11,057 bases of DNA, taken from the IMG/VR virus record IMGVR_UViG_2923360383_000006. One strand, given 5' to 3'. The stretch comes from a virus (taxonomy: Duplodnaviria; Heunggongvirae; Uroviricota; Caudoviricetes). The position numbers were made by a program, and so were the translations under genes. Under the pieces are notes generated by a model that was not told the DNA's origin, ran no database searches, and saw only the letters and a program-made list of their open reading frames with translations. This document shows positions 1,770 to 1,922 of the stretch, one piece after another. Numbering within the stretch: position 1 is the first letter of the stretch; each line of letters starts with the position of its first letter.

Positions 1770-1922
1770 ACCCGCTCCAGAATGTTTTAAACATGCATCT
1801 TGCGAACAACTTTCAGAAGAGGTCAAAAAATGCGCTATATGTTGAGCATAAAACAAGCAAAATTAACATACCAAAAATAAAAATACTTAAAATTCAATAT
1901 CATAGAAAGATGATGATGACGA

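Follow-up and report, generated by a model that had tools for sequence, protein, structure and literature searches.

The window, by which we mean the whole 11,057-nt stretch of DNA analysed here, contains a 153-nt gap whose role is the question raised by this locus. The gap (1770-1922) lies between the ATG of the terminase small subunit gene terS (1769-1767, minus strand) and a 94-nt repeat that starts at 1923 and carries the first of two cohesive-end (cos) sites. In the original prediction it was described as AT-rich and placed between cos copy 1 and TerS, and its composition bears this out: at 31.4% G+C, compared with 47.7% for the window, it falls in the lowest 2.2% of 153-nt segments. We conclude, with a probability of roughly 80%, that the gap is the cosB half of a lambda-type cos site followed by a short terS leader.

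Results

The window derives from a PICI-type satellite island of E. coli

The window is ~100% identical to a stretch of the E. coli chromosome adjoining tRNA-Ile, and perfect 49-bp direct repeats formed by the 3' part of tRNA-Ile bound the island as att sites 11,382 bp apart (7856-7904 and 19238-19286 of locus L001, just beyond both edges of the window). Every gene in the window is on the minus strand. A tyrosine integrase gene (9630-11057) is followed by small regulators and then by genes for a D5-type primase-helicase (5522-7354), SSB (4570-4992), a 68-aa ORF and a ClpP-protease/major-capsid fusion (2026-3939), the 161-aa TerS (1284-1769) and a ~95-aa ORF (1000-1287; PHROG 1561) that overlaps the terS stop. 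As the defining features of a PICI we took a size of ~10-20 kb, att sites, int, a small HTH regulator, pri with ori iterons, unidirectional genes and cos, together with the absence of tail and lysis genes. The integrase, D5-type primase, SSB, protease-capsid fusion, iterons, att repeats and two cos sites reproduce the layout of PICIs of the EcCICFT073 type, and the element is a PICI-type satellite of E. coli, 11.4 kb long, at tRNA-Ile. With EcCICFT073 itself it has in common int, an alpA-like regulator, pri, ori, a capsid gene and two cos sites, the last two being published features of that island (PMC6092414, PMC6739421, PMC10111431).

At least eight GGTGAACAG iterons, both direct and inverted, lie downstream of the primase gene (5286-5523), and this stretch is probably the replication origin of the island. 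Four island units amount to 45.5 kb, approximately the size of the mEp460, Tritos and cdtI genomes (44.5-47 kb). An Rfam scan of the window returned only sub-threshold, irrelevant matches, among them one to the SymR antitoxin RNA at 8159-8231 on the plus strand (34.7 bits against a gathering threshold of 61, E 0.0015), opposite minus-strand genes of the small-regulator region and near the Icd-like and YlcI genes; a tRNA scan of the window found none. Beside attL, an otherwise unannotated stretch of ~1 kb holds a strongly hydrophobic 47-aa ORF on the plus strand (116-259) with a GC-rich hairpin after it, near 275-300. This ORF could encode a small membrane peptide; NCBIfam gave no match for it or for the other small neighbouring ORFs.

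A lambda-type cohesive-end site adjoins the gap

The 94-nt repeat occurs at 1923-2016 and 4458-4551 (89% identity) and holds both cos copies, which read on the minus strand ...TTTTTTA(C/T)GGGTCCTCCCGGTG...CCACG/GGGCGGGAGCGG/CGCGGAAAAAGG..., with the predicted 12-nt cohesive end between the slashes. In copy 1 this end occupies 1965-1954, and cosN including the flanking CG dinucleotides spans 1952-1967 (minus strand). The records of the phages Tritos (OV696610) and cdtI (AB285204) begin exactly at the nucleotide equivalent to position 1965 of the window, which we therefore number bp 1. Comparison of GGGCGGGAGCGG with the lambda cohesive end, GGGCGGCGACCT, reveals the features of a lambda-like cosN: bases 1-6 are the same, the differences are confined to bases 7-12, and both flanking CGs are kept. 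Lambda-like phages vary naturally in the same pattern, keeping the cohesive end's left half and the CGs (PMC4669245). For the cdtI/Ayreon/mEp460 group, no experimentally mapped cos ends were found in the literature, which for phage Ayreon offers a terminase-phylogeny prediction only.

The same heptamer as in lambda, GGGTCCT, is present here as a cosQ-like element at 1988-1994 (minus strand). It extends from bp -29 to -23 relative to the cohesive end in both cos copies, compared with bp -30 to -24 in lambda (PMC4669245 for its coordinates and role), so that in each case the 7 bp lie upstream of the nick by about 30 bp; the lambda right end used for comparison has the heptamer within ...ACGGGTCCTTTCCGGTG.... 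The start codon of terS is at a lambda-like distance too, at bp 197 from the cohesive end compared with bp 191 in lambda.

On the side facing the gap, the spacer of bp 13-43 (CGCGGAAAAAGGCTAGTTTTTGCATTTTCAT; 1923-1953, minus strand) is common to both cos copies and to the phages, and it hardly varies among relatives (pi 0.012-0.024). It stands where lambda has I2, whose function it may share by analogy with the published system (PMC4669245). Up to bp 43 a single base distinguishes the two island copies; their sequences part ways at bp 44, immediately ahead of the first of the putative TerS sites discussed below. On the opposite side, the intrinsic terminator of the protease-capsid gene (1997-2020, minus strand; GGCGGCGACAGCCGCC followed by TTTTTT) abuts cosQ; the consensus scan used for promoters picked up its hairpin as well. 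Its T run does so in both copies (1997-2020 and 4530-4551), and the phage relatives inspected by eye (e.g. the L047 group) are without a terminator at cosQ.

The gap has the layout of a complex cosB

Taken with cos, the gap shares 78-83% identity with the spacer between cos and terS in the phages vB_EcoS-569R4, phi458, PhiR47_1 and mEp460. Loci encoding relatives of TerS were collected, 80 from IMG/VR and 59 from GTDB genomes, and some 20 diverged relatives have a layout in common whose distances from the cohesive end are fixed: bp 47-55 are R3, bp 62-74 an IHF-type site, bp 95-103 an R2 in inverted orientation and bp 121-129 R1. At these positions the window carries R3, the proposed primary TerS site (TCATCATCA; 1911-1919, minus strand), to which a related motif is found in the ~20 relatives, a candidate I1-type IHF core (ATTCAATATCATA; 1892-1904, plus strand), preceded by an A-rich tract at 1872-1891, R2 in inverted orientation with respect to R3 and R1 (TTAACATAC; 1863-1871, plus strand), and R1 (TCAACATAT; 1837-1845, minus strand).

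Three related 9-mers in forward, reverse and forward orientation were sought without constraining their positions, and in the relatives the search returned positions of about 47, 95 (inverted) and 121, with P<=0.03 in L096, L097, L101, L091, L102 and 569R4. The same search in the window alone did not single the sites out (19/27, P=0.62), and the R-site assignment therefore rests on comparison with relatives. With its sites fixed at the relative-predicted positions 47/95/121, the R triple of the window reaches 18/27, compared with 7.5 +/- 2.4 for shuffles (P=0.0003), and set against 1.95 million alternative placements in the real sequence it is among the best 0.03%. Three related R sites with R2 inverted, the arrangement of a complex cosB, are thus found where the relatives predict them, in copies that are degenerate (pairwise 5-7/9 identical). 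R3 is the least variable cosB element, with pi of 0.021 in type A and 0 in type C. R3 has primacy among the R sites in lambda genetics, and its low variability here fits that primacy.

The IHF core ATTCAATATCATA agrees with 7 of the 9 specified positions of the consensus WATCAANNNNTTR, a match with two mismatches that is at chance level in the window (P=0.79). In most of the 20 relatives examined, the same strand carries the consensus at bp 62-64, perfectly so in five of them, and perfect or one-mismatch sites in L087, L089, L091, L101 and 569R4 reach P values of 0.004-0.013.

The specificity of this putative cosB probably differs from that of lambda. As the original prediction had it, CGTTTCC, contained in the R consensus of the lambda/434/phi80 cosB specificity, is absent from the gap; the window has copies at 1506, 3102 and 6506 only, and the R motif here is TYAWCAT. 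Blocks resembling the lambda I1 region had also been reported. Both can be read from the minus strand, TTCGTCAT from 1923 to 1916 and GTATTTTTATTTTTGG from 1886 to 1871, and the overall resemblance to lambda cosB is no better than chance (local alignment score 14 compared with 12.3 +/- 1.9 in shuffles, P=0.23). The first block is not in the IHF site; it edges R3 on its 5' side and overlaps the first four bases of R3 (bp 47-50). The T-rich second block does correspond in position to the A/T tract beside the IHF-type core, namely the A-rich tract at 1872-1891.

R sites change in step with the DNA-binding domain of TerS

TerS belongs to the DUF1441 family (Pfam, 2.5e-34) and matches PHROG 141, terminase small subunit (3.5e-55). 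Directly readable upstream of its gene is a GGAG ribosome-binding site (1775-1778, minus strand), 5 nt before the ATG. In the phages 569R4, phi458, PhiR47_1 and mEp460 the DUF1441 gene carries the annotation terminase small subunit, and the next gene codes for a 700-aa TerL. The N-terminus of the protein aligns with residues 2-48 of the DNA-binding domain of lambda Nu1 (hhalign E 6.5e-4, low probability), and an AF2 model (pLDDT 79.5) gives the order beta-alpha-alpha-beta-beta-alpha, a winged-helix topology, to which top Foldseek matches to MerR-type winged helices add weak support. The gene immediately downstream of the putative cosB thus codes for a protein with a predicted N-terminal winged-helix DNA-binding domain, and this domain is of the type that always accompanies a cosB of the type found in the gap. 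Residues 1-95 differ at one position from the TerS of a true phage (L042), and the same DNA-binding domain and the same cosB occur together in three true phages having TerL (L042-L044). Residues 96-161, the C-terminal third (1284-1481 of the window), are island-specific.

Comparison across loci indicates that R-site sequence changes in step with the type of TerS DNA-binding domain. All three R sites have a CAT core in the 10 loci whose TerS reads N(I/L)NQLA...KLKLY and a CAC core in the 8 loci with N(I/V)(S/T)QL...SNLKLY, and in L100 and L101, whose TerS has a different recognition helix, the R sites are GTGCAGC. The R2 and R1 arms switch jointly between cosB types, reading ATGTTAA/TCAACAT, GTGTCGA/CAACACC or ATGTCGAA/TTCGACAT. 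As cosB adjoins terS at its 5' end, linkage alone could account for the way protein and DNA types go together; however, linkage leaves unexplained that three separate sites are alike within a lineage and diverge between lineages. In Gifsy-2, whose TerS is also of the DUF1441 family, TTCGACACTGA is found at R2 and R1 and CAGCACTGA at R3, a layout that agrees with the R3-I1-R2-R1 order of lambda, which has been stated for Gifsy-1, phi80 and 21 too (PMC9026076, PMC4669245). The homology to phage spacers and the family-wide R3-I1-R2-R1 layout argue in favour of the original suggestion that the gap is a cosB with recognition sites for a TerS of non-lambda specificity.

The strongest competing explanation is a variant of this one, in which the cosB would be read, as with RppA of EcCICFT073, by a heterodimer of the island's TerS-like protein and a helper TerS, the helper subunit contacting TerL. 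In lambda it is the C-terminal third of TerS that binds TerL. The island protein keeps the N-terminal and central regions of the phage type together with its island-specific C-terminal third, and the neighbouring genes differ: TerS with an island-type C-terminus is followed by the ~95-aa ORF in 36 of 36 related islands and by TerL in none, compared with a 700-aa TerL after 38 of the 42 with a phage-type C-terminus. The gene order matches as well, since in EcCICFT073 cos1 stands beside rppA (PMC6092414, PMC6739421) and in both elements a gene for a DNA-binding packaging protein comes directly after cos1. However, the gene next to cos1 in the island codes for a full-length DUF1441 TerS homologue. 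Rpp was compared with it via solved chains only, and a PDB sequence search with TerS matched no solved chain, RppC, for which solved structures exist (PMC6739421), included. In addition, the cosB is homologous to phage cosBs, unlike EcCICFT073, which uses Rpp and is without a phage-like cosB or R repeats, and the three true phages L042-L044 combine the same domain and the same cosB with a TerL. We therefore regard an Rpp-like heterodimer as rather unlikely and continue to favour a cosB matched to the DNA-binding domain of the island's TerS.

Two cos sites with different cosB types and the probable maintenance of the first

Cos copy 2 (4285-4529, minus strand; bp 1 at 4500; cosQ heptamer GGGTCCT at 4523-4529) is followed by a different cosB, of the Tritos/cdtI type. 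Downstream of it the DNA hardly differs from the opening ~200 nt of the Tritos and cdtI records, as far as their terS start, and its cosB holds a perfect IHF consensus at bp 64-76. Given this flank and the shared cos, the island has two complete cos sites with two types of cosB. The stretch 4273-4457, put forward earlier for comparison with the gap, is hence this other cosB, unlike the first and of the type seen in the phages Tritos and cdtI.

Three further observations concern the pair of sites. Cos copy 2 keeps a remnant of the terS start of the Tritos/cdtI lineage in which GTG has replaced ATG, and a terminator (4270-4254) comes after it. Of ~36 related islands in IMG/VR, 14 have this pair of cos sites. 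In some related islands, such as L016 (IMG/VR), the SSB terminator is directly followed by cos with a type A cosB and the capsid module is absent, an arrangement in keeping with the module having been either gained or lost via recombination between the two cos copies.

The presence of two sites raises the alternative that the gap is a relic, a phage-derived cosB out of use in an island that is immobile or packaged via cos copy 2 only. The R copies and the IHF core are indeed more degenerate than in the phage relatives, and the cos sites of EcCICFT073 contribute unequally (PMC6092414). Conservation speaks against disuse, however: the full stretch is found in 173 of 5,426 complete E. coli genomes, it recurs with terS intact in more than 30 distinct island variants, and the matching TerS domain accompanies it without exception. 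Among these island variants, R3 and bp 18-46 vary least (pi ~0.02), less than the spacers, which together with the IHF core vary most. A relic is accordingly improbable, and we consider it highly probable that the gap works as a cosB of the lambda-like complex type, matched to the DNA-binding domain of the island TerS.

A conserved leader separates the R sites from terS

Between R1 and the ribosome-binding site lies a conserved 33-nt leader (AAGTTGTTCGCAAGATGCATGTTTAAAACATTC; 1780-1812, minus strand), and across roughly 800 complete E. coli genomes positions 1770-1813 show ~98-100% identity. The leader is retained in the type B phages examined, whose R sites differ. Positions 1770-1813 also contain a conserved mini-ORF, ATG CAT GTT TAA. 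ORFs spanning the gap (1793-2059, plus strand; 1835-2029, minus strand) were rejected as coding because relatives differ there by indels of 1 nt and of 11-12 nt.

The leader includes the inverted repeat to which the original prediction had drawn attention, with arms of 7 nt and about 12 nt upstream of the ribosome-binding site. Positions 1781-1795 read AATGTTTTAAACATG, and the perfect repeat therefore has arms of 6 nt (ATGTTT-T-AAACAT, 1782-1794); it ends 3 nt upstream of the GGAG (1778-1775). Such a repeat carries little meaning in DNA of this composition: a comparable one arises in ~14% of shuffles of the AT-rich stretch, and the right arm is not conserved in types C or A' or in non-E. coli relatives. 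RNA and DNA folding of the leader and of the whole gap gave no structure above shuffles (z of +1.63 and -0.41 for the leader), and the idea that the palindrome acts as a hairpin or in the manner of a riboswitch was therefore abandoned.

A terS promoter in the gap, which had likewise been suggested, found no support in the analysis. Scanning the minus strand for a sigma-70 consensus (-35 and -10 with 16-18 nt spacing) gave none, the best PWM candidate scored 9.4 compared with 8.8 +/- 1.8 in shuffles (P=0.35), and the candidate -35 element, TTGACC, is present too in the true phage L042, which needs no promoter there. That the gap should be mainly the terS promoter, with the palindrome as operator or translational control element, is therefore very improbable, even though the stretch is AT-rich, its 33-nt leader is highly conserved and the terminator just upstream of cosQ means that terS may need its own promoter, since the homologous stretch also exists in phages in which it is transcribed from upstream.

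Discussion

Our reading of the gap as the cosB of cos copy 1 draws on homology, anatomy, positional conservation, the concerted change of the R sites and their co-occurrence with a TerS domain type. From these we infer how binding, bending, cutting and the choice of the acting TerS might proceed. The N-terminal winged-helix domains of TerS would bind the 9-bp sites R3 (1919-1911), inverted R2 (1871-1863) and R1 (1845-1837), and bending at the IHF-type site and the A/T tract (1904-1872) would allow one TerS dimer to span R3 and R2. From R3, the bound TerS would place the large terminase of the helper phage on cosN (1965-1954), ~45 bp off, which the large terminase would nick in staggered fashion, with packaging running toward terS. 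The acting TerS could be the island's own (1284-1769) or a helper TerS with the same type of DNA-binding domain.

Such a mechanism would be ordinary by the standard of lambda. The cosQ heptamer, bases 1-6 of the cohesive end, the flanking CGs and the distance to terS are alike in both, R3 lies ~45-50 bp from the end (bp 50-65 in lambda; PMC9026076), an IHF-type site, in the island a candidate one, separates R3 from the inverted R2, R1 comes next, and both small subunits have an N-terminal winged helix, predicted in the case of the island. The island differs from lambda in the R motif and in a cosB whose similarity to that of lambda is at chance level; in addition, R2 and R1 are ~26 bp apart, an extra conserved leader of ~65 bp precedes terS, and TerS is of the DUF1441 family with only remote similarity to Nu1. 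Closer relatives are the cosBs of Gifsy-1, Gifsy-2 and mEp460-like phages, true homologues with the same layout and the same DUF1441 TerS family, from which the island sets itself apart by an R core of CAT instead of CAC (mEp460 and Gifsy-2), by its degenerate IHF core and by being a satellite and not a phage.

Among satellites, the island departs from EcCICFT073 in its phage-homologous complex cosB, its full TerS homologue and a cos2 cosB taken from another phage lineage. The TerS of pac-type staphylococcal SaPIs offers a probable functional parallel, being likewise a satellite-encoded small terminase that is paired with its own site and redirects the TerL of the helper, but these SaPIs use headful pac packaging and a TerS of another fold family and are without cosN and cosQ. 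A tentative possibility for the island is packaging with dual specificity, in which the cosB of cos1 would serve its chimeric TerS and that of cos2 could be read directly by Tritos/cdtI helpers, so that helpers of two lineages or more, alike in cosN and TerL and unlike in TerS specificity, could package it, with four units (45.5 kb) filling one helper-sized head.

The probable cosB of cos copy 1 is an ordinary, already understood kind of element, and the current picture of cos packaging is unchanged by it. What the analysis provides are base-level predicted TerS sites for the DUF1441 small-terminase family, which serves many lambdoid prophages of E. coli and Salmonella, including Stx- and Cdt-converting phages, and a candidate Gram-negative PICI that would use a phage-homologous complex cosB with its own TerS instead of the Rpp route. 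The pairing of R core (CAT, CAC or GCAGC) with TerS domain amounts to a natural specificity series for the evolution of packaging specificity, and it could help predict which helper phages mobilise which islands.
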